A stretch of DNA of 47,713 nt. Origin: a virus. Lineage: Duplodnaviria; Heunggongvirae; Uroviricota; Caudoviricetes. A program made the translations under genes and the position numbers. Below the pieces are notes generated by a model. It saw only the letters and a list, made by a program, of their open reading frames with translations. It was not told the DNA's origin and did no database searches. The stretch lies in the IMG/VR virus record IMGVR_UViG_2541047774_000010. One strand, 5' to 3'. Positions 6,683 through 47,100 of this stretch are shown here, one piece after another. Positions within the stretch are counted from its first letter, which is position 1. Every line of letters starts with the position of its first letter.

Positions 6683-7375
6683 TTAATTGTGTCGCTTAAG
6701 GGTTTGTGACTGGCTGATTAAGACCTTTCCAAAGACCATAAACCGGTGTTCATTTTCGCTGGTAATTCCCCATTCACGGTAAATCTGGTTATCAGAAATC
6801 ACCAGTAGTTTGTCAGGTATCATTTGCAGTCGTTTGACATAAATTTTATCATCAAAACCAAATACATAGATACCATCTCCATCAAACTGATTGATACTGA
6901 CATCAACGAAGATGAGATCTCCTGGCTCAATGGTTGGACACATACTGTCCCCACGAACGTTGATTACTTTAATGTGATTTGCTGGCCGTCCGCCAAACAT
7001 CGATACAGCATTATCAGTTCTGTATTCAATGGCATGAATCACATCAATGACATCACCGCCCTGGATAAGGCCATTTCCCGCACTGGCACTGATATCCAGC
7101 ATTTCAATACGGAATACATCCTTCACCTGCGCAACATCCTCACTAATACTGTTTTTACATACAGTATTACTTTTGAAGTCTGAGGTAAAGAGATCAGCAA
7201 TATCAACACCTAAGCTCCTGGCAATATTACTCAGGGCTTGTTCAGTGAATTGTTTCTGCTTACCTGTTTCCAGGCGCGAGATATTTGCCGCATCCACTCC
7301 TATTGCTTCAGCGAGATCGGCGATTTTCATGTTCTTCGCTTGGCGAAGTTGTCTGACTCGATTTCCTATGTTCAT
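6683..7375 (-). CDS. cI: CI-like prophage repressor (XRE HTH plus S24 LexA-type peptidase domain)
   Basis: 230 aa; N-terminal HTH (VRQLRQAKNMKIADLAEAIGVDAANISRLETG); Ala-Gly cleavage site (SASAG); C-terminal GDSMCPTIEPGDLIFVD with the Lys of the catalytic dyad; divergent from cro. Confidence 0.93.
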   Translation of the reverse strand: MNIGNRVRQLRQAKNMKIADLAEAIGVDAANISRLETGKQKQFTEQALSNIARSLGVDIADLFTSDFKSNTVCKNSISEDVAQVKDVFRIEMLDISASAGNGLIQGGDVIDVIHAIEYRTDNAVSMFGGRPANHIKVINVRGDSMCPTIEPGDLIFVDVSINQFDGDGIYVFGFDDKIYVKRLQMIPDKLLVISDNQIYREWGITSENEHRFMVFGKVLISQSQTLKRHN

Positions 7376-7733: not shown

Positions 7734-8277
7734 GCATCACTGGAAAGTGGAAAAACAGCCTGAGTGGTACGTGAAAGCTGTCAGAAAAACTATCGCGGCG
7801 TTGCCGGGGGGTTACGCTGAAGCTGCTGAGTGGCTGGATGTAACAGAGAACGCTTTATTCAACCGCCTTCGTGCAGATGGCGATCAGATTTTCCCGCTGG
7901 GATGGGCAATGATTTTACAGCGCGCTGCTGGCACTCACTACATTGCGGATGCTGTCGCACAGTCTGCTGGTGGGGTGTTTGTATCGCTTCCTGAAATTGA
8001 GGAAGTAGAGAACGCCGATATAAACCAGCGCCTGCTGGAAGTCATCGAACAAATCGGGAGTTACTCAAAGCAGATTCGTTCGGCAATCGAAGATGGGGTA
8101 GTGGAGCCACACGAGCAGACAGCAATTAATGATGAGTTGTATCTGTCGATTTCGAAGCTCCAGGAGCATGCGGCACTGGTCTACAAAATTTTCTGCGCTC
8201 CAGAAAAGAGTGACGCCCGCGAGTGTGCAGCTCCGGGCGTCGTGGCGTTTTGTGTCTGTGGAGAAACTAACGCATGA
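7726..8277 (+). CDS. Early regulatory protein in the CII position (YdaT/CII-like); GTG start
   Basis: 183-aa ORF beginning at a GTG with AGGAG 8 nt upstream, overlapping the cro stop; the call rests mainly on position. Confidence 0.45.
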   Translation: MGKHHWKVEKQPEWYVKAVRKTIAALPGGYAEAAEWLDVTENALFNRLRADGDQIFPLGWAMILQRAAGTHYIADAVAQSAGGVFVSLPEIEEVENADINQRLLEVIEQIGSYSKQIRSAIEDGVVEPHEQTAINDELYLSISKLQEHAALVYKIFCAPEKSDARECAAPGVVAFCVCGETNA

Positions 8278-8602
8278 ACAGTTTAACGGCAAATAACCGT
8301 TTGTCGCAACAGCTGGTGGTCAGCGTCTCTGAACACCTGTTGTTACGGCATGAATGCAGATTACCAAATCACCAGGCTGTAAGTAACCACAGAGAACTTT
8401 ACCTGACTGTGGGGGGCGAGTTGTGCAGGAACTTAACCGCTGGTTTCGTGACGGAAGAGGGCTTTATGTTCATGTTATTCGTTGGGAACCAGAAACACAG
8501 CGCGTTATCTATCTTCGCAAAGACTACCCGCATGAGTGCTTTAGTCCTTTGTGGAAATTCAGGCGTGATTTTGTTGAGTGTGACGGACCACCAACACATT
8601 GA
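8274..8602 (+). pseudogene. Small early gene split by a G6 homopolymer (frame disrupted in this sequence)
   Basis: ATG 8274 with good RBS (GGAGA); frame 0 runs through G6 at 8411-8416 into non-coding-looking sequence; the protein-like continuation VQELNRWFRDGRGLYVHVIRWEPETQRVIYLRKDYPHECFSPLWKFRRDFVECDGPPTH (8423-8602) lies in the +1 frame. Confidence 0.4.
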
Positions 8603-8687
8603 TTCTGCCATTCCGGGACGTTACACTGTTCAGGCACCTTATAAAACGGGTGCCGGGCGTGGAAACCCGGAATTCACCAAAGCGCAC

Positions 8688-8711
8688 AACCGCGCTCTTG
8701 CGGTTTTTTTG
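8688..8711 (+). terminator. Intrinsic terminator (tR1-like position)
   Basis: AACCGC-GCTCTT-GCGGTT hairpin followed by T7; it lies inside the track's 8274..9425 ORF, arguing that region is not coding. Confidence 0.45.
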
Positions 8712-8879
8712 TGTCATGAGCAGCATTACGCCCAAATTATGGTGGGGCGTGCAGGGCCAACTTCGGTTGGGCCGGGTTCTTTGGTGACCGGTATTTCCAC
8801 CCCTGTACGTCTCACCACCAATAAGGTCGTGGAAAGCCTTGGTGGTGAGTTATTAAAAATCACCAAAGAGGCTGCCATC

Positions 8880-9425
8880 ATGGCTACGATCCCAACCCTC
8901 ACTCAACCTGAAATTGCCATCGTTGATGGTCAGGTTGTTACTTCATCCCTGGCTGTTGCCAACTTCTTCTCCAAACGTCATGACGATGTACTGAAAAAGA
9001 TCCGCACGCTTGAATGCTCAGCATCATTCACTGCCCGCAATTTTTCGGTGAGTGATTACACTGATTGCACAGGTCGCAAACTTCATTGCTACCAAATCAC
9101 ACGCGATGGTTTTGCGTTTCTTGCTATGGGTTTCACGGGTAAACGTGCTGCCCAGTTCAAAGAGGCATATATCAATGCCTTTAACCAGATGGAGAAACAG
9201 CTTTCAAAGCCCGCTGTACCGAGCGACGTTGCACATAACGCCAGCGTTCTCTGTTCCTACATTTCATCAATTCATCAGGTCTGGCTGCAGCAGCTTTATC
9301 CTATGTTGGCAAAAGCCGAATCTCCGCTGGCTGTTAGCTTATATGATTATATTAATGATGCTTCGGCGCTGGCCTGCCTCATAAATTTGTCGCTGAACCC
9401 TTCAGAGGTAAGGGGGCGCAAATGA
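8880..9425 (+). CDS. rha: Rha-family phage regulatory protein (antirepressor-like)
   Basis: 181 aa from MATIPTLTQPEIAIVDGQVVTSS with RBS AAGAGG; motif GFAFLAMGFTGKRAAQFKEAYINAFNQME is typical of Phage_pRha. Confidence 0.8.
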   Translation: MATIPTLTQPEIAIVDGQVVTSSLAVANFFSKRHDDVLKKIRTLECSASFTARNFSVSDYTDCTGRKLHCYQITRDGFAFLAMGFTGKRAAQFKEAYINAFNQMEKQLSKPAVPSDVAHNASVLCSYISSIHQVWLQQLYPMLAKAESPLAVSLYDYINDASALACLINLSLNPSEVRGRK

Positions 9426-9646
9426 TCCGGAATATTTTCAAACGTTTTACCAATCAGACTTTCCGTTGTCCTCGTCCGGGTCAGTGGTACACCACGCCTG
9501 CAGGGCATGTTCTACGTGTTAGCCTGGTTGACCGTGAATGTCAGAAGGTGGTTTGTGAACCGCTGGGCCGTAATTACCGCGTCAGTATGCCGCTTATAGC
9601 CTTTTGCTCCGGAAAAAACATGAAGCATCTCGGAGGTGCAGCATGA
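9422..9646 (+). CDS. Hypothetical protein
   Basis: 74-aa ORF translationally coupled to rha (ATGA overlap) with RBS AGGGGG; no family recognised. Confidence 0.4.
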   Translation: MIRNIFKRFTNQTFRCPRPGQWYTTPAGHVLRVSLVDRECQKVVCEPLGRNYRVSMPLIAFCSGKNMKHLGGAA

Positions 9647-10461
9647 GTATGGAGCTGATGGTTAAAGCGATGAAAATTCGAGTGGGTAATCCATTGCGAA
9701 AACTGGTTCTGATCAAGCTGGCTGATAATGCCAGCGATCAGGGTGAGTGCTGGCCCAGCTACCAGCATATTGCTGACCAGTGCGAGATTAGCAAACGTTC
9801 TGTGATGAATCATATTGCGGCCCTTTGTGATTCCGGGCTGGTAAAAAAAGTCACCCGGAAAAGTGAAAAAGGTAACTCAAGTAATATCTATCTCCTTCAT
9901 CTGGATGGTGCAGGAGATTCACTAGGGGGTAGTGCAAATAATTCACTATCTGGTGCAGCAAATTCACCAGGTAGTGCAGGAGTTGCACCAGGGGGTGGTG
10001 CAGGAGATTCACCCAGAACCAGTCACTCTTTTGAACCAGTCAAAGAACCAGTCAATGAACCAATAGCTGTTGGTGCATCTGCTGATGAGTCTGTGCGAGT
10101 TCGTTCAAACCGACCGGAATACTCTCCGGAGTTTGAGCAGGCATGGCTGGCATACCCCAAACGTGCTGGTGGCAATTCAAAATCTGCAGCCTTCAAAGCC
10201 TGGAAAGCCCGTTTGAATGAGGGGGTAAAACCCGAAACCATGCTGGAAGGTGTGAAACGCTACGCGGGCTGGGTATCTGCGATGGGTAACAGCGGCACAC
10301 AATTTGTGAAACAGGCTGTCACGTTCTTTGGTCCGGATCGTCATTTCGAAGAATCCTGGGAAGTTCCTGCGGTATCTGCAGCCAGACGCGAGGACCCGTA
10401 CTTCAAAGCCAGTTACGACAACGTGGACTACAGCCAGATCCCGGCAGGATTCAGGGGGTAA
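9643..10461 (+). CDS. O: Replication initiator, lambda O-like (N-terminal HTH, iteron-encoded linker, C-terminal domain)
   Basis: Start MSMELMV with RBS GGAGGTG; N-terminal HTH (LIKLADNASDQGECWPSYQHIADQCEISKRSVMNHIAAL); Gly/Ser/Ala linker encoded by the iterons; C-terminal EFEQAWLAYPKR...AFKAWK resembles the lambda O C-terminus. Confidence 0.7.
   Translation: MSMELMVKAMKIRVGNPLRKLVLIKLADNASDQGECWPSYQHIADQCEISKRSVMNHIAALCDSGLVKKVTRKSEKGNSSNIYLLHLDGAGDSLGGSANNSLSGAANSPGSAGVAPGGGAGDSPRTSHSFEPVKEPVNEPIAVGASADESVRVRSNRPEYSPEFEQAWLAYPKRAGGNSKSAAFKAWKARLNEGVKPETMLEGVKRYAGWVSAMGNSGTQFVKQAVTFFGPDRHFEESWEVPAVSAARREDPYFKASYDNVDYSQIPAGFRG
9907..10068 (+). repeat. Putative origin of replication: five ~20-bp iterons plus three 12-bp tandem repeats inside the O-like gene
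   Basis: Five direct repeats of consensus GGTGCAGGAGATTCAC starting near 9907, 9928, 9952, 9970 and 9994; then GAACCAGTCAAA, GAACCAGTCAAT, GAACCAATAGCT at 10033-10068. Confidence 0.55.
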
Positions 10462-10463
10462 TC

Positions 10464-10952
10464 ATGAGTCTTTTGAATGAAGTTCAGAAATTCATTGAAG
10501 CCCATCCGGGGTGTACTTCCGGAGACATTGCAGATGCTTTTGCAGGTTACTCACGGCAGCGCGTTCTGCAGTCAGCAAGCAAGTTACGTCAGAGTGGGCG
10601 TGTGGCTCACCGTTGTGAAGGAGATACACGCAGACATTTCCCGCGCCTGACTGAGAGAGCGCAGGAGCCGGAACCACAACCAGTTCGTGAAACCAGACCT
10701 GTGCGCAATTTCTATGTCGGCACTAACGATCCCCGGGTAATTTTGTGCCTGACCCGCCAGGCTGAAGAACTGGAGTCCAGGGGCTTATACCGTCGTGCTG
10801 CAACCGTGTGGATGGCGGCATTCCGTGAAAGCCACTCCCAGTCAGAACGAAACAATTTTCTGGCGCGCCGTGAGCGGTGCTTACGGAAAAGCAGCAAGCG
10901 CGCTGTATCGGGTGATGAGTGGTATCTGTCAGGGAATTACGTGTGGGCTTAA
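10464..10952 (+). CDS. Hypothetical protein with C-terminal PerC-like motif
   Basis: 162 aa; C-terminal AEELESRGLYRRAATVWMAAF...SERNNFLARRERC resembles the PerC/Pch regulator signature (GLYRRAA) as recalled. Confidence 0.45.
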   Translation: MSLLNEVQKFIEAHPGCTSGDIADAFAGYSRQRVLQSASKLRQSGRVAHRCEGDTRRHFPRLTERAQEPEPQPVRETRPVRNFYVGTNDPRVILCLTRQAEELESRGLYRRAATVWMAAFRESHSQSERNNFLARRERCLRKSSKRAVSGDEWYLSGNYVWA

Positions 10953-11278
10953 TGACGACGTTAACTCAATGCCAGCAGCAGGTGCTGGATATGCTGATTT
11001 CTTATCAGAAAGAACGTGGTTTCCCGCCAACCAATCAGGAGGTGGCAGCCATGCTGGGATACCGTTCGGTGAATGCAGCGGTGGAGCATCTTCGCGCACT
11101 GGAGAAAAAAGGCGTCATCACGATAAAGCGTGGCGTGGCCCGGGGTATCACGCTTCATACCACAGTGAAGGACGACGACAGCGAGGCAGCCGGGATTATC
11201 CGCGCACTGCTTGCCGGTGAGGAAAACGCCAGACTGCGTGCAGCCCACTGGTTACATGAGAGGGGCCTGAAAGTATGA
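10952..11278 (+). CDS. LexA DNA-binding-domain-like protein lacking a peptidase domain
   Basis: Start MTTLTQCQQQV (TAATG coupling to the upstream gene); LTQCQQQVLDMLISYQKERGFPPTNQEVAAMLGYRSVNAAVEHLRALEKKGVI resembles the LexA N-terminal winged helix; no S24 domain follows. Confidence 0.55.
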   Translation: MTTLTQCQQQVLDMLISYQKERGFPPTNQEVAAMLGYRSVNAAVEHLRALEKKGVITIKRGVARGITLHTTVKDDDSEAAGIIRALLAGEENARLRAAHWLHERGLKV

Positions 11279-11664
11279 AGCTGATCCTGCCTTTCCCGCC
11301 CAGCGTGAACACGTACTGGCGACACCCCAACAAAGGGGCGTTTGCTGGTAAGAGCCTGATAAGCGCGGCGGGGCGCAAATTCCAGAGCGCGGCGTGTGCA
11401 GCAATATTTGAGCAGTTACGTCGTCTGCCAAAACCAACGTCGGCACCTGCTTCAGTGGAGATCGTGTTGTTTCCTCCGGATAACCGGATCCGCGATCTGG
11501 ACAACTATAACAAGGCGCTGTTTGACGCCCTGACCCACGCGGGTGTGTGGGAAGACGACAGTCAGGTGAAAAGAATGCTGGTGGAGTGGGGACCGGTTAT
11601 CCCGGAAGGGAAGGTCGAGATCACTATCAGTAAGTACGAGAAAACGGCGGGTGCAGCCGCCTGA
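11275..11664 (+). CDS. rusA: Holliday junction resolvase RusA
   Basis: 129 aa; LPFPPSVNTYWRH...RDLDNYNKALFDALTHAGVWEDDSQV matches the RusA family. Confidence 0.88.
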   Translation: MKLILPFPPSVNTYWRHPNKGAFAGKSLISAAGRKFQSAACAAIFEQLRRLPKPTSAPASVEIVLFPPDNRIRDLDNYNKALFDALTHAGVWEDDSQVKRMLVEWGPVIPEGKVEITISKYEKTAGAAA

Positions 11665-11683
11665 TTAAGAGGAGAAACGAAGT

Positions 11684-12481
11684 ATGAATAATCTGATGGT
11701 TATTGATGGTATTGAAGTTCGTCGTGATGCTTATGGGCGTTACAGCCTGAACGATCTGCACAGGGCTGCTGGTTCTCTGGATAAGCATAAGCCCGCATTC
11801 TGGCTCCGCAATGAGCAAACTGAGCGTTTAATAAGCGAGTTGCAGATTTGCAACTCGGTCAATATAGAGCCAGTTAACGTTATTCGTGGCGGAAATAACC
11901 AGGGGACGTATGTCTGCAAAGAACTGGTGTATGCCTATGCAATGTGGATCAGCCCGTCATTCCATCTGAAGGTGATCCGTACTTTCGACATGGTAACCAG
12001 CGCACCGGAAAAATTATCCGGACAGGCTGCTGACAAGATGCAGGCTGGTGTGATTCTGCTGGACTTTATGCGCCGGGAATTAAACCTGTCTAACTCTTCA
12101 GTGCTTGGTGCCTGCCAGAAACTCCAGGAGGCTGTTGGCTTACCGAATCTGGCACCGCGCTATGCCATTGATGCTCCTGCTGATGCACACGATGGCTCAA
12201 GTCGCCCCACGCTGTCTCTGAGTGCACTGCTGAGGCAGTATGGTATCCGCCTGACGGCTAATCAGGCATATCACCAGATGGTGAAGCTGGGGATCGTTGA
12301 ACAACGCGAACGATACAGCCGTACCGCGATTAACAACATCAAAAAATTCTGGTCGCTGACGGCGAAAGGCTGCATGTTCGGCAAGAACATCACCAGTCCT
12401 GCAAATCCGCGCGAGACGCAGCCGCATTTCTTCGAATCCCGATTCCCTGAGCTGTTAAAGCTGCTCGATACCGTTCATTGA
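11684..12481 (+). CDS. KilA-N domain protein (antirepressor-like)
   Basis: 265 aa with strong RBS (AAGAGGAGAAA); N-terminal KilA-N signature (YSLNDLHRAAG...KPAFWLRNEQT...GTYVCKELVYAYAMWISPSFHLKVI). Confidence 0.8.
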   Translation: MNNLMVIDGIEVRRDAYGRYSLNDLHRAAGSLDKHKPAFWLRNEQTERLISELQICNSVNIEPVNVIRGGNNQGTYVCKELVYAYAMWISPSFHLKVIRTFDMVTSAPEKLSGQAADKMQAGVILLDFMRRELNLSNSSVLGACQKLQEAVGLPNLAPRYAIDAPADAHDGSSRPTLSLSALLRQYGIRLTANQAYHQMVKLGIVEQRERYSRTAINNIKKFWSLTAKGCMFGKNITSPANPRETQPHFFESRFPELLKLLDTVH

Positions 12482-12482
12482 G

Positions 12483-13430
12483 GTGACCGTGAGAGCACTA
12501 CTGACCCCTGAAATTGCCCCGCGTATGGGGATTGTATTGTTCAGGCCAGGTTCAGAGCTGATGCCCCTGTTTATGCAGGGGCGTGTCCTGCTGGAGCCTG
12601 AGCCGGAACGTTATTCATCTTTCGCCAGTGGTGCCGTTCCGGCGGCATCACAACCGCTGGCGGATGATCCTGCCGTTCGGGCCGTGTTCCGCAATGAGGC
12701 AGTGATCCGTCGTGCTGGTGGCGTGGAATGTCTTGAAAGCTGGTTACTTCGTGAAAAGGGCTGTCAGTGGCCTCATTCCGACTGGCACAGCGAGAACATG
12801 ACCACAATGCGGCACGCTCCGGGAGCAATTCGTCTGTGCTGGCACTGCGATAACCAGCTGCGTGACCAGTTCACGGAACGGCTGGAATCAATGGCAACGG
12901 ATAACTGTGCCCGCTGGGTGTTGTCTGTCGTGCGTCGGGATCTCGGTTTTGATGACAGTCACGTTGTGACAATGCCGGAACTGTGCTGGTGGCTGGTTCG
13001 TAATGATTTGGCGGATGCCTTACCGGAAAGTGCAGCCCGTAAGGCACTGAGATTACCGAAGCCTGTTGTGCCATCTGTCACCCGGGAAAGTGACCTTGTG
13101 CCTTCGGTTCCTGCCACCAGCATCATCCAGGATAAAGCGAAAAAGGTGCTGGCGCTGAAAGTGGATCCGGAGTCGCCGGAGTCTTTTATGTTACGCCCCA
13201 AACGTCGCCGCTGGGTTAATGAAAAGTACACGCGCTGGGTTAAGACGCAGCCGTGCGCATGTTGTGGAAAGCCAGCTGATGATCCCCACCACCTGATAGG
13301 CCACGGTCAGGGTGGAATGGGTACAAAAGCGCATGATCTCTTTGTGTTGCCTTTGTGCAGAAAGCATCACGACGAGCTGCATGCGGATACCGTGACATTT
13401 GAAGAGAAGTATGGCTCCCAACTGGAGTAA
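12483..13430 (+). CDS. ydfU: DUF968-family protein, YdfU-like, C-terminally truncated by IS4
   Basis: 315-aa ORF with Cys/His cluster (CACCGKPADDPHHL...CRKHHDELH); the stop TAA at 13428-13430 is supplied by the first bases of IS4; the original last ~20 codons sit after the IS (14854-14917). Confidence 0.75.
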   Translation: MTVRALLTPEIAPRMGIVLFRPGSELMPLFMQGRVLLEPEPERYSSFASGAVPAASQPLADDPAVRAVFRNEAVIRRAGGVECLESWLLREKGCQWPHSDWHSENMTTMRHAPGAIRLCWHCDNQLRDQFTERLESMATDNCARWVLSVVRRDLGFDDSHVVTMPELCWWLVRNDLADALPESAARKALRLPKPVVPSVTRESDLVPSVPATSIIQDKAKKVLALKVDPESPESFMLRPKRRRWVNEKYTRWVKTQPCACCGKPADDPHHLIGHGQGGMGTKAHDLFVLPLCRKHHDELHADTVTFEEKYGSQLE

Positions 13431-14853
13431 TGCCAGTCAGTTAAGCAACTGACTGGCTCTTTTTCGGGGCTGTGGGGTATTTCCAGGGCCTCTCCTTTAC
13501 CACTCTCGGGAAGGCCCTTTCCCTTCTTGTCGGTAATTTCACAAGTTGTCCCATACTTGCAAGATCGTGCATCAGCTCCGGTATACGTCCCGGTGAAGCG
13601 CCCTGCAATGTCATCAGCATTCTCATCACCATTCCGCATGATTCTGAGAAACTCAGTTGATTCGGCCAGTAACCTTTCAGATGTTCCGCCATTTTAATCA
13701 TCTGATATCTCACCAGATTATAAGCCAGTAAGACACCCCACAGCTCTTGCTCCACAAGCTCCGGCTTTTTACTTCTCAGCGTCAGCCTGCTCAGTTGCAT
13801 CGTCTGTTTTATCTCCCTGTATCCCAGTTCGATTTCCCAGCGATGACTGTACAGATCCGCCATTTCTCCTCCGGGGAAGCGCATGGCGTCCGTCATCGAC
13901 GTCAGCAGATGGCAGACTTTTCCTTTGCGCGTCACGGTCAGCAGGCGGGCTGTCACCTCATTTCCCAGTCCCGGCCACTTTTTTCGTGCCTGCGGGCTGG
14001 TTTTCAGCTTCACCAGATGATCGCCTTTACCCAGTTTTCTGATCTCTTCATATTGCGCTCCCTTTCTGAGAGGGATCATCCAGTGGCGGTGTTCTCCCGC
14101 CAGGCTCCAGGCATTTAACAGTCCCAGTGAGTAATAACCTTTGTCCATTAACGTCAGAGTGTTATCGCCGGTTTGTTCTATAAGTTGCTCAGCAAGCTCA
14201 TTTTCGCTGTTCTTCATCGTGCCGAAGGCTGCAGCCGTCAGCAGATGGCTGGTCAGTTCCATCTGGCAGACCATTTTGACCTGCGGGTAGAGCGCCGGGT
14301 TCCCGGCATGTGTCTGGCGGGGGAAGGCTGCATCGTTCTCTGGTGTATCCGGTGTGCGCCAGAACACACCATCGATGGCCAGCAGGGTCAGGCCGCACCA
14401 TTGCGGATGCGGCGTGGCGTTATGCCAGAGCTGCGCTGTTTTCGTGAACACGCGGCGGACAGCCTCACTTCCCAAGCGCTGGCGGGCCTGAATAACGGCA
14501 CTGGGGGCAACGAAGGGGCGATTGCCCGGCAGCATGATGTCCAGGCGATTCACAATCTGGTGAAGAGGTTCTTTACGCTCAAGCGCCATGCCAACAATAC
14601 ACCAGACCATCATTTCGAGGGGAAGACGGCGCTTGCGTAGCGTTACAGTACCTGATTCGGCAAGGCAACGAGAGATGAGTTCGGGGTCGAGGTAATCCCC
14701 CAGAGAAGTCAGTGGGTTACGCAGAGAATCGTAACGGGATACCAAATCAAGGGCCTGTCCAATGTGCATAAAAAAATCCGGAAACGAGTGAGCGTTTCCG
14801 GATTCTTACACAGCCACTGGATCGGTCAACTGATCCTTAACTGATCGGCATTA
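13428..14853 (-). mobile_element. IS4 insertion sequence, complete, with 13-bp target site duplication
   Basis: 1426 bp, the canonical IS4 length; terminal inverted repeats TAATGCCAGTCAGTTAAGC (left) and reverse complement of TAATGCCGATCAGTTAAGG (right); flanking direct repeats CTCCCAACTGGAG at 13415-13427 and 14854-14866. Confidence 0.92.
13441..14769 (-). CDS. insG: IS4 transposase
   Basis: 442-aa ORF matching the IS4 transposase in length and sequence as recalled. Confidence 0.93.
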
Positions 14854-14930
14854 CTCCCAACTGGAGCTGATATTTCGTTTTATCGATCGTGCGCTGGCAA
14901 TTGGCGTACTGGCGTAAGTGGAGAACGAGC

Positions 14931-15683
14931 ATGAACCTTGAAGCCTTACCAAAATATTACTCCCCAAAATCTCCAAAATTGAGTGATGCCGCACCGGCGA
15001 CAGGCTCAGGTGGTTTAACGATTACGGATGTGATGGCTGCGCAGGGGATGGTGCAGTCGAAAGCACCGCTTGGGTTTGCCTTATTCCTGGCAAAAGCTGG
15101 CGTTCAGGATCCTCAGTTTGCGATTGAAGGTCTGCTCAATTACGCGATGGCACTGGATAACCCGACATTGAACAAATTGAGTGAAGAAATCCGGTTACAG
15201 ATCATCCCTTACCTTGTGAGTTTTGCCTTTGCTGATTATTCCAGGTCTGCGGCAAGTAAGGCTCGCTGTGAGCCTTGTGCTGGTACTGGATTTCATAATG
15301 TATTGCGCGAAGTGGTGAAATACTCCAGAAGCGGGGAGTCTGTTATCAAGGAAGAGTGGGTGAAGGAACTATGTCAGCATTGTCATGGTAAGGGAGAAGT
15401 CAGCACAGCGTGCAGAGGGTGTAAGGGTAAAGGTATTGTCCTGGATGAAAAAAGGACCCGGCTTCATGGCGCGCCTGTTTATAAGATTTGTGGGCGTTGC
15501 AATGGAAACCGGTTTAGTCGTTTACCAACGACACTGGCGCGGCGTCATGTCCAGAAGCTGGTACCAGACCTGACTGATTATCAGTGGTACAAAGGATATG
15601 CAGATGTCATTGATAAACTGGTTACAAAGTGCTGGCAGGAAGAAGCATATGCTGAGGTGCAATTAAGAAAAGTGACGAGATAA
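14931..15683 (+). CDS. Late-gene antiterminator Q-like protein (zinc-binding)
   Basis: Start MNLEALPKYY with RBS GTGGAGAA; three CxxCxGxG-type motifs (CEPCAGTGF, CQHCHGKGEV, CRGCKGKG); sits between the nin-like genes and a strong promoter/terminator pair. Confidence 0.6.
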   Translation: MNLEALPKYYSPKSPKLSDAAPATGSGGLTITDVMAAQGMVQSKAPLGFALFLAKAGVQDPQFAIEGLLNYAMALDNPTLNKLSEEIRLQIIPYLVSFAFADYSRSAASKARCEPCAGTGFHNVLREVVKYSRSGESVIKEEWVKELCQHCHGKGEVSTACRGCKGKGIVLDEKRTRLHGAPVYKICGRCNGNRFSRLPTTLARRHVQKLVPDLTDYQWYKGYADVIDKLVTKCWQEEAYAEVQLRKVTR

Positions 15684-15714
15684 ATGATTTTCGCCGAAGA
15701 TGGCGACGTAATGC

Positions 15715-15743
15715 TTGCATTTTTCAAAAAATATGGATAAAAT
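15715..15743 (+). promoter_or_regulatory. Putative late promoter pR'
   Basis: TTGCAT (15715-15720), 17-nt spacer, TAAAAT (15738-15743), about 30 nt downstream of the Q stop. Confidence 0.5.
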
Positions 15744-15790
15744 TTTTTCAACGATGGGCTTTATATACCCGACGTTAAGAAAAAGTAGAA

Positions 15791-15820
15791 AACCCGCTGA
15801 TGAGCGGGTTTTTGTGCTTT
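15791..15820 (+). terminator. Putative tR' intrinsic terminator
   Basis: AACCCGCT-GATG-AGCGGGTT 8-bp stem followed by TTTTGTGCTTT, about 45 nt downstream of the putative pR' -10. Confidence 0.6.
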
Positions 15821-16098
15821 AAATAGGGTAATAGAGATGTTGAATCTCATTCCGGGATTCATGTTTGTTTACTTATTATTTATCGGGTGACTTTGCCTGA
15901 TGTTTAAAATGTTTTCTTCCAGTACTATGTCCCTAGATACAATGAGTCTGCATATTACATTATTAGCAGAGCTATTACGGTCAAAGTACAGCATAAGCTT
16001 TTAAAGCCAATCAACCAGTCATCAAGACAGACGGGGTTATTCATGAAAACTCTCCATGTTTGATTCGATGGGGCCTGAAATTAAAGCTTTAATATAGC

Positions 16099-16311
16099 TC
16101 ATGAAAGGTAAACATTGGCAGCTGAAGGGCCACGCAGACCATTTATCCGGCAAAATTCCACGCGTAATCCGGTGGTAATTTCTTCTGCATCGCGGAGATT
16201 GAGCGCTGAAACATGAAGCTGGACATCGATACGACCATCGGATGGGGTGATAAGACCCTTGCCGCTTTTGCCGTCAAAGGTTTTGACAATTCCTGTCATT
16301 TTACGGGACAA
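16099..16311 (-). CDS. cspF: Cold shock protein paralog, CspF/CspH-like
   Basis: 70 aa [27 protein letters not shown]...[19 protein letters not shown], matching CspF/CspH as recalled. Confidence 0.88.
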
Positions 16312-16611
16312 AAAAATTCCTTAATACTGATAACTGGGCGCACTATACACACGTTCCTGAAGAAAGCTATAGTTTTTTGATGGGGTTGAAGATGGCTGGA
16401 TGTCTAAAATAAACATTGCTTCATATGTTCAACTATGCGTTAATGATTGCGTCGGTTTGAAGAACAGACGATATACGAAGTAGTTTACTAAAGCAGTTCT
16501 CATTTCAGGTGTTATTCACTTATTCCTTCTTTGAGTCTCTCCAATTAAGTACGAAGTCGTTTCTGTTATACAAGCCATTTATGCCGAAAGGCTCAAGTTA
16601 AGGAATGTAGA

Positions 16612-16827
16612 ATGTCAAATAAAATGACTGGTTTAGTAAAATGGTTTAACGCTGATAAAGGTTTTGGCTTTATTTCTCCTGTTGATGGTAGTAAAGATGT
16701 GTTTGTGCATTTTTCTGCGATTCAGAATGATAATTTTCGAACCTTATTTGAAGGTCAAAAGGTTACCTTCTCTGTAGAGAGTGGTGCTAAAGGTCCTGCA
16801 GCAGCAAATGTCATAATTACTGATTAA
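16612..16827 (+). CDS. cspB: Cold shock protein CspB-like
   Basis: 71 aa [38 protein letters not shown], a CspA-family protein matching CspB as recalled. Confidence 0.88.
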
Positions 16828-17108
16828 AATTCATAGTTTGTCTGTATACGATAACGAAGAAGGCTGATGCCTGAGTGGAGATACAGACAGAGTGGTGAAT
16901 ATTGGATCTCTTTAATAAATAGTAAGGAGGTCCAATACATGAAACAATGGCCAGCATATTTGGCAATAACTTAATCAGGAAAAGTATGCTAACCATTGTG
17001 GTGAAGTGCAGGTTTGCTGCATGAATAGTTTTACAGCAGAAGCTAACTGCTGGCATAGCAAAACAAAGTGCGTAAGTGGATGACTCCCACAAAAAGTACC
17101 ACAATATT

Positions 17109-17134
17109 AAACCCGCTCAGGCGGGTTTTTTATT
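17109..17134. terminator. Intrinsic terminator, possibly bidirectional
   Basis: ACCCGC-TCAG-GCGGGT hairpin followed by TTTTTTATT on the plus strand; lies between cspB and the convergent zinc-ribbon gene. Confidence 0.6.
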
Positions 17135-17190
17135 ATCTGCTTTAAATATGTTATTAAAATATAAAAAATACTTGTTACGAATAAAATCAA

Positions 17191-17361
17191 TCAAGCTACA
17201 GCTTTAAGATTTGTCTGGAATACTTTGTTGCAATGAGGGCAGATCAAAAGGGCACCTTTTTGTACTCTTGAAAAACTGTGTTCTGACTCTTGGGTGCAGT
17301 TTGGGCAGGAACATTTAACGAGATAATTACGGCGTGATTTTGAGTCTTTACGTTCTGACAT
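17191..17361 (-). CDS. Small zinc-ribbon protein
   Basis: 56 aa from MSERKDSK with RBS AGGAAAA; two CxxC pairs (CSCPNC...CPHC). Confidence 0.45.
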   Translation of the reverse strand: MSERKDSKSRRNYLVKCSCPNCTQESEHSFSRVQKGALLICPHCNKVFQTNLKAVA

Positions 17362-17579
17362 AGGCTTTTCCTGTATAAATGGCCGTATACAGTACACTAA
17401 ATATGAAAACATATCTCGTATTATTATTTAATATATGATTTTCTTTTAAAATAATTACCCACATTTTTAATGTGTCTGTTTTTTAGCGCCGTTGAGAACA
17501 ACGTTTGCTATAAAAACTAACCCATAGACTCCGATCTTTTCAAACATATTGCACCATCTGTGTACATCGGGGTGAGGAT

Positions 17580-17795
17580 ATGAAATCAATGGATAAGTTA
17601 ACAACAGGTATCGCCTATGGCACATCGGCTGGTAATGCTGGTTTCTGGGCATTGCAGTTACTCGATAAAGTAACTCCGTCACAGTGGGCTGCAATCGGTG
17701 TGCTGGGTAGTCTGGTTTTTGGCCTGCTGACGTATCTGACAAACCTTTATTTCAAGATTAAAGAAGACAGGCGTAAGGTTGCGAGAAGAGAGTAA
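17580..17795 (+). CDS. Holin, EssD/EssQ-like
   Basis: 71 aa [26 protein letters not shown]...[33 protein letters not shown] matches the E. coli prophage holin EssD/EssQ as recalled; RBS GGGGTGAGGA. Confidence 0.88.
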
Positions 17796-17799
17796 TCCA

Positions 17800-18351
17800 A
17801 TGACACAAGACTATGAACTGGTTGTGAAAGGAGTCCGCAATTTTGAGAATAAAGTGGCGGTAACTGTAGCCTTACGGGACAAAAAACGCTTTGACGGTGA
17901 AATTTTTGACCTGGACATCTCGCTGGACCGTGTTGAAGGTGCCGCGCTGGAGTTTTATGAGGCAGCAGCCAGAATGAGAATCAGACAGGTATTCCTGGAT
18001 GTTGCTGCCGGGTTATGTGTAGGGGATGAGCAGTCGCCGGAAAAGCGCCCCATAATTTTAGAGGCGCAGAATGTGTGGATAACCTACAAAGGAAAGCTAC
18101 CGGGAAGAATTACTGGTTCTCTGAAGACGCCACCGACGGCATTGCGGTCAGAAAAAGATGATATTGAATCGCCCATTGAAAAACTGGAGGGCAGCGTCGC
18201 TGATCTGAATAAAAAATTGTCGGTGCTGATCCCTTCTGAAGATGAAAAAAAACGCCGCGATGAGCAGTTTGCGGCGTTTTACGATTATTGCATTGAAGTT
18301 ACTCGCAGGAATTTTGTGAAGATTTTTGAGGAGGGTAAATCTCTTCAGTAA
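17800..18351 (+). CDS. ydfR: YdfR-like protein (N-terminal similarity), with extended C-terminus
   Basis: Start MTQDYELVVKGVRNFENKV matches YdfR as recalled; this ORF is longer (183 aa) than the recalled K-12 YdfR (about 103 aa). Confidence 0.65.
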   Translation: MTQDYELVVKGVRNFENKVAVTVALRDKKRFDGEIFDLDISLDRVEGAALEFYEAAARMRIRQVFLDVAAGLCVGDEQSPEKRPIILEAQNVWITYKGKLPGRITGSLKTPPTALRSEKDDIESPIEKLEGSVADLNKKLSVLIPSEDEKKRRDEQFAAFYDYCIEVTRRNFVKIFEEGKSLQ

Positions 18352-38351: not shown

Positions 38352-41753
<3,402 letters not shown>

Positions 41754-46509: not shown

Positions 46510-47100
46510 TTATATGTCAGGTGTCTGAAGTTTTGCTTTGGCTCTTAAAATGGTTTGCCGCGAGGTTTTGAATTCCCGGGCAATGGCACTTATACTTACA
46601 CCTGACTTAATCCGTTCGAATACCACCTGTTTCTGTTCTTCATTTAACACAGGTGGTCGACCAAAACGTTTCCCTGCGCCCCGGGCTCTTACTATCCCGG
46701 AATGAGTGCGTTCAAGTAAAAGGTCTCGTTCAAATTCAGCGACTGCTGAAATTACTTGCATCATCATTTTTCCTGTTGGACTGGTCAGGTCAATGCCCCC
46801 CAATGCTAAGCAATGCACTCTGATACCTGTTTCGGTCAGTTGTTCCACTGTTTTCCTGATATCCATTGCATTACAACCAAGGCGATCCAGTTTTGTCACA
46901 ATCAATTGATCACCACATTTCAGGCGAGCAAGCAACCGGTTAAAACCAGGACGCTCACTGGTTGCTGCTGAGCCGCTAATGTGTTCTTCGATTATTTGCT
47001 GAGGTTTGATTTTAAAACCTGCACTTTCGATTTCCCGGCGTTGATTTTCGGTGGTCTGATCCAGCGTTGATATCCGACAGTAAGCAAAAATTCGAGACAT
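46510..47100 (-). CDS. pin: Serine recombinase / DNA invertase, PinQ/PinR-like
   Basis: 196 aa; catalytic Ser in [10 protein letters not shown]-terminal HTH; matches the K-12 prophage invertases PinQ/PinR as recalled. Confidence 0.9.

Follow-up and report, generated by a model that had tools for sequence, protein, structure and literature searches.

A LexA-type DNA-binding domain without a peptidase domain in the early operon of lambdoid prophages: a possible LexA surrogate of lytic growth

The DNA described here, a stretch of 47,713 nucleotides recorded as IMG/VR virus IMGVR_UViG_2541047774_000010 (hereafter the window), is a lambdoid prophage closely like mEp460. Between a PerC-family gene and the gene for the Holliday-junction resolvase RusA it carries a gene for a 108-residue protein made of a complete LexA DNA-binding domain (DBD) followed by a short tail, with no S24 peptidase domain. 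The anatomy of this gene, its context, its conservation and the SOS boxes located with it can be read directly from the genomes that carry it. As to its function, we tentatively favor, with somewhat less than even confidence, a RecA-proof dimeric LexA surrogate that would occupy LexA-type operators during lytic growth; a phage-specific regulator with an operator of its own is nearly as likely. Public records and PHROGs already annotate this domain architecture, and one phage analogue of the uncharacterized protein has been characterized.

In the favored mechanism, a helical hairpin in the tail would make the protein a dimer, and the dimer would bind LexA-type palindromes of the form CTGT-N8-ACAG. 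The protein would be made from the early-right promoter PR after induction or infection. Because it would appear at that time and could not be cleaved or removed by activated RecA (RecA*), it would re-occupy SOS operators at which host LexA has been destroyed. SOS-controlled genes of the host and of mobile elements, together with an SOS box in the phage's own cI gene, would thus be shut down while the phage replicates. We infer the dimerization, the binding site and the physiological effect of such a surrogate from sequence, a structural model and analogy with known systems.

Domain identity and predicted structure

The gene and the parts of its product are as follows.

10952-11278 (+): LexA-DBD-only gene; ATG at 10952, TGA at 11276-11278, 108 amino acids; PHROG 362; RefSeq "LexA family protein / LexA repressor"
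10952-11155 (+): winged helix-turn-helix, residues 1-68; helices 6-22, 28-35 and 40-52, strands 56-58 and 66-68 (AlphaFold2 and Foldseek)
11069-11107 (+): recognition helix alpha3, residues 40-52 (VNAAVEHLRALEK), directly preceded by Ser39 (aligned with E. coli LexA)
11156-11173 (+): acidic flexible linker, residues 69-74 (HTTVKD); predicted local distance difference test (pLDDT) below 50 at residues 71-75; insertions and deletions between alleles
11174-11257 (+): two-helix hairpin, residues 75-102 (helices 75-88 and 93-102); pLDDT 88-90; conserved; putative dimerization module

An earlier note on this DNA, made from the sequence alone, had described the protein as a LexA DBD lacking the C-terminal S24 domain, and both parts of that description hold. 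Residues 1-65 match the Pfam profile PF01726 (LexA_DNA_bind) over all of its 65 positions (1-65; E = 3.4e-19), with a score of 68.8 bits against a cut-off of 23.7, so that the profile search suggested in the note as a check is positive. PHROG 362, labeled "transcriptional repressor", spans the protein, with residues 1-108 aligned to profile positions 1-106 of 106 (E = 3.5e-58). In a phmmer search of the PDB, the protein matched the E. coli LexA DBD (1lea) and full-length LexA (1jhh, 3jso) with E of about 1e-15. An AlphaFold2 model, built on 23 family sequences and with a mean pLDDT of 83, superposes on the LexA-DNA complex 3jso with a root-mean-square deviation (rmsd) of 1.0 Å over 67-68 residues at 50-51% identity (Foldseek); for 3jso and 1lea together the range is 1.0-1.3 Å over 67-68 residues. 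Both the profile score and the superposition of the winged helix place the protein in the LexA_DNA_bind domain family.

It is not, by contrast, a LexA repressor proper. Its score against TIGR00498, the LexA equivalog model, is 67.6 bits, below the cut-off of 110.95, and only model positions 1-91 of 203 are aligned. The Pfam search gave no Peptidase_S24 match, the chain ends at residue 108 with rusA next, and the S24 Ser/Lys dyad and dimer interface and the conserved Ala-Gly cleavage site are all missing. As the protein has no peptidase domain, it is not cleavable in the manner of LexA. For the same reason, the names "SOS-response repressor and protease LexA" and "RecA-mediated autopeptidases" given to the 108-residue protein in some records (LR595862.1, KF030445.1, AB285204.1 and others) are misleading; other records use "LexA DNA binding domain protein", "LexA family protein" or "LexA repressor", the last of which is wrong in the same respect.

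The place of the S24 domain is taken by the linker and the two-helix hairpin. Tail positions 79/80, 82/83, 86/87, 93, 97 and 100/101 carry hydrophobic residues in essentially all of the 23 sequences, the most distant being 40% identical, and the resulting stripe is wider than a single hairpin requires. Since the stripe exceeds the needs of a lone hairpin, the hairpin is read, from sequence and model, as a putative dimer interface that replaces the S24 domain.

The DNA-binding surface is largely that of LexA. In E. coli LexA, DNA contacts are made by Ser39, Asn41, Ala42, Glu44 and Glu45 of helix 3, according to two papers that cite nuclear magnetic resonance and crystal work (PMC13416735, PMC3091678). 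Four of these five residues (Ser39, Asn41, Ala42, Glu45) are kept in the 108-residue protein, while position 44 is Val. All family members have Lys53 and Arg64-Gly65-Ile66; at position 45, most have Glu and a few have Gly, Asp, Leu or Ile. In one sub-family, represented by protein P0136 and the loci L014 and L028, the recognition helix reads SPNAAAEHLKALERKG against SPNAAEEHLKALARKG in LexA, which within this stretch is Glu44 to Ala and otherwise only A51E. Judged from these alignments, the family-wide loss of Glu44 probably alters affinity or specificity.

Operon context and conservation

The two neighbors of the gene overlap it.

10464-10952 (+): PerC-family gene (yfdN-like; Pfam PerC); its TAA stop shares one base with the ATG start of the LexA-DBD gene (TAATG)
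11275-11664 (+): rusA, Holliday-junction resolvase (Pfam RusA); its ATG start codon overlaps the TGA stop of the LexA-DBD gene (ATGA)

The gene is thus translationally coupled within the early-right (PR) operon, between PerC/Dam and RusA. In the window, the early genes run from cI (on the minus strand) through cro, a CII/CP76-family gene, DUF4222, the IsrK and C4 RNAs, a Rha-family gene and a replication gene to PerC, the LexA-DBD gene, RusA, KilA-N, DUF968, an IS4 insertion and the antiterminator gene Q. A dam gene lies between the PerC-family and LexA-DBD genes in SfV, SfII and mEp460. No promoter was detected in a search upstream of the LexA-DBD gene. Because the coding regions abut and no promoter was found nearby, the protein is probably a delayed-early PR product of lytic growth and not a product of the repressed lysogen.

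In all fetched family loci that continue beyond the LexA-DBD gene, down to 42% identity, RusA is encoded immediately or almost immediately downstream, as assigned by tblastn or Pfam; for L028, the assignment rests on the order of open reading frames (ORFs) and similarity to L014. The order LexA-DBD, RusA, DUF968, Q is seen in all fetched loci of sufficient length, which come from Escherichia, Shigella, Citrobacter, Kosakonia, Enterobacter and Buttiauxella; within the E. coli clade, the genes from the replication gene to Q follow one another without any intergenic space. Other ORFs are inserted between the LexA-DBD gene and rusA in two loci, L014 and L015. Phage ST64B and Klebsiella phage 1 LV-2017 have the same type of RusA (80% and 71% identical) and DUF968 without a LexA-DBD gene. 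The gene is an optional part of the RusA/DUF968 module.

It is also a common one. DNA of the gene was found in 2233 of 5426 complete E. coli genomes, with up to four copies per genome, and in 50-65 phage records, among them SfV (orf42), SfII, SfIV, mEp460, cdtI, 2H10, and Stx2c and Stx2a phages. The protein is 100% identical in phage 2H10 and E. coli GE3. The gene is under purifying selection: among close alleles, the ratio of nonsynonymous to synonymous substitution rates (dN/dS) is 0.09-0.36, and almost all replacements fall in the linker and tail, leaving the DBD nearly invariant among E. coli alleles. An exhaustive HMMER search recovered full-length relatives down to about 40% identity, all of about 106-135 residues and with the same C-terminal tail. 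Five metagenomic proteins (P0128, P0145, P0152, P0161 and P0171) have two tandem LexA_DNA_bind domains and no S24 domain, and are in effect single-chain pseudo-dimers, a further means of pairing LexA DBDs without S24.

SOS boxes and other features of the prophage

The SOS boxes that bear most on the protein lie within cI in the window and at the head of the operon in one sub-family.

6683-7375 (-): cI-type main repressor; HTH_3 and Peptidase_S24 (Pfam); Ala99-Gly100, Ser144 (GDSM) and Lys181 (VKRL) from the translation
7147-7166 (no strand assigned): perfect 20-bp SOS box TACTGTTTTTACATACAGTA, within cI (codons 70-77), in the segment for the linker that joins the helix-turn-helix (HTH) and S24 domains
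L014 4560-4579, L016 4561-4580, L028 5467-5486: sub-family SOS boxes in promoter-like sequence heading the operon

The main repressor had been described in the earlier note as LexA-fold and cleavable. The S24 domain, Ala99-Gly100, Ser144 and Lys181 bear this out; the likeness to LexA is confined to the C-terminal half of the protein. The box within its gene has no mismatch to TACTGT-N8-ACAGTA, for which about 0.003 perfect matches would be expected from base frequencies alone, and it is the sole site above threshold in a position weight matrix (PWM) scan of the window; the matrix represents E. coli SOS boxes, and exact-consensus matches are independent of it. As the only strong LexA-type operator in the window, this box is the leading candidate for a target of the LexA-DBD protein within the phage. 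Its CTGT/ACAG arms are kept while spacer and flanks vary in SfII, ST64B, Klebsiella phage 1 LV-2017 (about 70% DNA identity) and Shigella and Citrobacter prophages, a pattern that indicates selection on the DNA site itself. No convincing sigma-70 promoter was found beside the box on either strand, and no description of the box was found in the literature searched. A GAGGA-GTG motif at the box, considered as an internal start, was set aside because, judged by eye, the Klebsiella homologue does not conserve it.

In the P0136-like sub-family (L014, L016, L028), the start of a strong SOS box lies no more than a few bases from a -10-like hexamer, as in the arrangement TTGCAA-17-AATAAT followed by ACCTGTACATTCATACAGTA. 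This promoter-like sequence heads an operon of a small ORF (75-82 residues, no Pfam match), the LexA-DBD gene, RusA, DUF968 and Q, and a terminator-like hairpin with a T-run lies just upstream of it in L014 and L016. LexA control of the whole module, with Q included, is predicted from its sequence. The arrangement resembles the autoregulation of lexA, and a protein able to bind such boxes would be autoregulated in the same way. In L014, the gene called at the repressor position encodes a 128-residue HTH-only protein with no S24 match, and for this reason the small ORF of that locus could be an SOS-induced antirepressor.

Strong SOS boxes are found elsewhere in carrier phages. They stand at the start of a late-region DNA methyltransferase gene in SfV (L006, 34170), mEp460 (L007) and L016 (7739). 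The mEp460 boxes, at 41021, 23255 and 23283, include the methyltransferase start and the promoter of a phage dinI homologue, and a box at 6794 in L021 is downstream of Q. These boxes are absent from the window.

Searches for operators of other kinds gave little. Variant half-sites that might suit Val44 (ACTNT-N8-ANAGT, with N being A, C or T) gave no perfect site in the window, SfV or mEp460, and two matches with one mismatch, both in the window; all perfect sites in these three phages are canonical SOS boxes. No recurrent candidate operator emerged from a general enumeration of 5-mer palindromes with spacers of 6-10 nt, or among short inverted repeats across 9400-17900. A palindrome overlapping a -35 element, of the type used by the tectivirus protein gp6 discussed below, was not recognized in the window, where late control is by Q.

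Several other features of the prophage were observed. An IS4-family transposase gene (13441-14769, minus strand) lies between DUF968 and Q; Q is thereby cut off from the early operon, and late-gene activation in this prophage may be crippled. DUF968 has 315 residues here and 329 in relatives. The Hfq-binding small RNA IsrK (8634-8710) and the C4 antisense RNA (8735-8822), both identified with Rfam, lie just upstream of the Rha-family gene (8880-9425), an arrangement that resembles the P1 immI-type antisense control of an antirepressor. The "antirepressor" of mEp460, an ORF of 383 codons with the same length as the window ORF at 8274-9425, has probably been called too long. Downstream of Q, at 16451-16890 (plus strand), Rfam identifies a full-length cspA thermoregulator RNA element (156 bits), and cold-shock protein genes are annotated or called at its position in 2H10 and Citrobacter prophages. 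A serine recombinase or DNA-invertase-like gene (46510-47100, minus strand) adjoins the tail-fiber genes and may serve as a tail-fiber host-range switch. PADLOC found no defense-system membership.

Competing explanations and implications

Several observations speak for a surrogate. The protein combines a full LexA_DNA_bind match, the superposition on 3jso and retained contact residues with the lack of an S24 domain and a confidently predicted hairpin bearing hydrophobic stripes; the palindromes found in the window, SfV and mEp460 are canonical SOS boxes with no CTNT variants; and the start and stop overlaps with neighboring genes, together with the lack of a detected promoter nearby, place the gene in the PR transcript. 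The earlier note had suggested that such a protein could occupy SOS boxes as a non-cleavable mimic. Its peptidase-free chain, its LexA-like DNA surface, the SOS boxes in carrier phages and the one sub-family placed behind an SOS-box promoter agree with this, but the lost Glu44 and the drifting recognition helix do not. No binding or reporter data for this protein family were found in the literature searched.

A number of observations weigh against the surrogate. Glu44, one of the five cited contacts, is never retained in the family; the position is V, A, T, F, L or Y and never acidic. The recognition helix also drifts, reading NTIAGH in P0088 and NTVFIH in P0201, despite a perfect SOS box upstream of the P0201 operon, and this weakens the case for SOS-box mimicry because a strict mimic is not expected to allow such drift. 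The protein diverges faster than its neighbors (the Citrobacter homologue is 63% identical, against 91% for RusA and 88% for DUF968), which counts against a surrogate because invariant host operators would have to be matched. Strong SOS boxes are lacking within 6 kb in about half of the family loci, and the box within cI is also found in ST64B and the Klebsiella phage, neither of which has the LexA-DBD gene. The position of the gene in a PR-driven operon with no detected promoter of its own means that the protein is probably not made in the lysogen. Finally, the sole characterized phage LexA-DBD protein, gp6, uses a different palindrome and activates transcription.

E. coli LexA (1lea, 1jhh, 3jso) and the 108-residue protein share the DBD fold (rmsd 1.0 Å), 44-51% identity and the residues Ser39, Asn41, Ala42, Glu45, Lys53 and Arg64-Gly65-Ile66. 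Unlike LexA, which dimerizes through its C-terminal domain (PMC3091678), the 108-residue protein has no S24 domain, Ser/Lys dyad, conserved cleavage site or C-terminal dimer interface; it has Val in place of Glu44, and it is phage-borne, in an early lytic operon. The best working model for such a molecule comes from bacterial two-hybrid systems, in which LexA-DBD fusions repress sulA-lacZ when their fused partners interact (PMC10761746). There too, a LexA DBD is joined to a module other than S24, and repression of an SOS operator depends on that module pairing two DBDs. The fusions are artificial and use the authentic E. coli DBD, whereas the phage DBD has diverged and its tail is only taken to dimerize. 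BlaI/MecI-type repressors likewise have a winged helix at the N terminus and a helical domain at the C terminus and gave weak whole-length Foldseek matches, but they show no detectable sequence relationship, fit poorly (rmsd 8-10 Å) and are inactivated by proteolysis in the linker.

The closest characterized analogue of the 108-residue protein is gp6 of GIL01, a Bacillus thuringiensis tectivirus. This truncated LexA homologue, 44% identical to host LexA, binds its own palindrome, GaCACA..TGTGaC, and activates the late promoter P3 (PMC6182141). Both proteins are LexA winged helices of temperate phages without the S24 catalytic domain, about 44% identical to the DBD of host LexA and belonging to early genes after induction, and the window protein can be classed with gp6 on these grounds. 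Their remaining parts differ: in gp6 there is just an extension of 14 residues, which forms the wing, and in the 108-residue protein a 40-residue linker and helical hairpin. The phages differ as well, GIL01 being a linear, plasmid-like tectivirus whose repressor is host LexA and the window phage being lambdoid, with its own cleavable CI and a Q antiterminator. The site and activator role of gp6 are experimental, while the 108-residue protein is known here from its sequence and was compared with gp6 by description. In a tblastn search of the phage collection (E<=1e-3), neither the named organism groups nor the matches listed included a record from Bacillus or a tectivirus. What gp6 shows is that the LexA DBD is re-used by phages, and that neither binding to SOS boxes nor repression need follow from its presence.

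This precedent underlies the alternative that is nearly as likely as a LexA surrogate, namely that the protein is a phage-specific transcription factor in which the LexA fold has been re-targeted to a private operator, with little or no action on host SOS boxes. We regard this as possible, if less than probable. Beyond gp6, with its own palindrome and its activation of P3, the family-wide loss of Glu44 and the variable recognition helix fit such a role, as does a divergence faster than that of the flanking genes, which is the pattern of diversifying specificity; the PHROG 362 label, "transcriptional repressor", is generic and suits it equally. Against this reading, neither the window nor the surroundings of the LexA-DBD gene yielded a recurrent non-SOS palindrome, and intergenic space is lacking between the replication gene and Q in the E. 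coli clade. Late control is already provided by Q, and Asn41, Ala42 and Glu45 are retained in most members.

A second GIL01 protein bears on the LexA surrogate itself. The corepressor gp7 binds LexA, keeps LexA operators occupied after DNA damage and holds back a co-resident prophage (PMC9700832). It differs from the 108-residue protein in that it is not a DNA-binding LexA homologue and acts by binding host LexA, but the outcome is like that proposed for the surrogate: LexA operators are kept closed, and host genes and a co-resident prophage are suppressed. The gp7 precedent thus supports the idea that a phage could gain from closing LexA operators after DNA damage.

The constant company of rusA raises the question of whether the protein, instead of being a transcription factor, assists the RusA/DUF968 recombination module by binding DNA, for example to target or modulate the resolution of junctions. 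The gene is directly upstream of rusA, usually with overlapping stop and start, in every fetched locus that extends past it, and DUF968 (HNH-like) and Q follow. However, the modules of ST64B and Klebsiella phage 1 LV-2017 do without it, L014 and L015 carry ORFs between the two genes, and the retained base-contact residues of LexA point to sequence-specific binding of duplex DNA. E. coli RusA, moreover, resolves junctions alone in vitro. An accessory role is accordingly improbable.

Much less probable still is a poisoning or titration of host LexA or phage CI, whether through heterodimers or through "LLAGE" acting as a pseudo-substrate for the S24 active site. HMMER does align IIRALLAGE with the VGRVAAGE of LexA around the Ala84-Gly85 cleavage site, and titration of LexA had been raised in the earlier note. 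It finds no structural basis, as the C-terminal domain through which LexA dimerizes (PMC3091678) is absent from the 108-residue protein. Mimicry of the cleavage site was likewise rejected: Ala88-Gly89 lies in a predicted helix and not in an extended loop, and the pair is not conserved, being AN, VG, ER, TR, DD and others in relatives.

That the gene is a functionless, decaying remnant of a captured lexA, as its absence from phages with a similar module (ST64B, the Klebsiella phage) might suggest, is effectively refuted by the dN/dS values of 0.09-0.36, the almost invariant DBD among E. coli alleles, the architecture of 106-135 residues and tail conserved down to 40% identity, and its presence in 2233 of 5426 complete E. 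coli genomes.

The wider claim, that a RecA-proof surrogate present in about 40% of E. coli genomes, including those with Stx2c and Stx2a phages, re-closes SOS operators after the destruction of LexA, is on balance doubtful. If it is true, an induced prophage could switch off error-prone repair, SOS toxins, colicins and the LexA-controlled antirepressors of rival prophages, and the surrogate could block transcription through the SOS box in its own cI. The sub-family with an SOS-box promoter would then be a prophage-encoded negative-feedback "SOS brake". If the protein instead has an operator of its own, it would represent a second independent phage re-tooling of the LexA DBD after GIL01 gp6. 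The finding is of moderate interest for the prevalence of the gene, its presence in Shiga-toxin (Stx) and serotype-converting phages, and two unexplained SOS-box arrangements, one inside cI and one heading the sub-family operon. Should SOS operators be bound, a very common prophage gene would be an unrecognized modifier of the SOS response of E. coli and Shigella, and because it occurs in so many genomes and in Stx- and serotype-converting phages, it may affect mutagenesis, antibiotic tolerance, the induction of Shiga-toxin phages and the competition between co-resident prophages.

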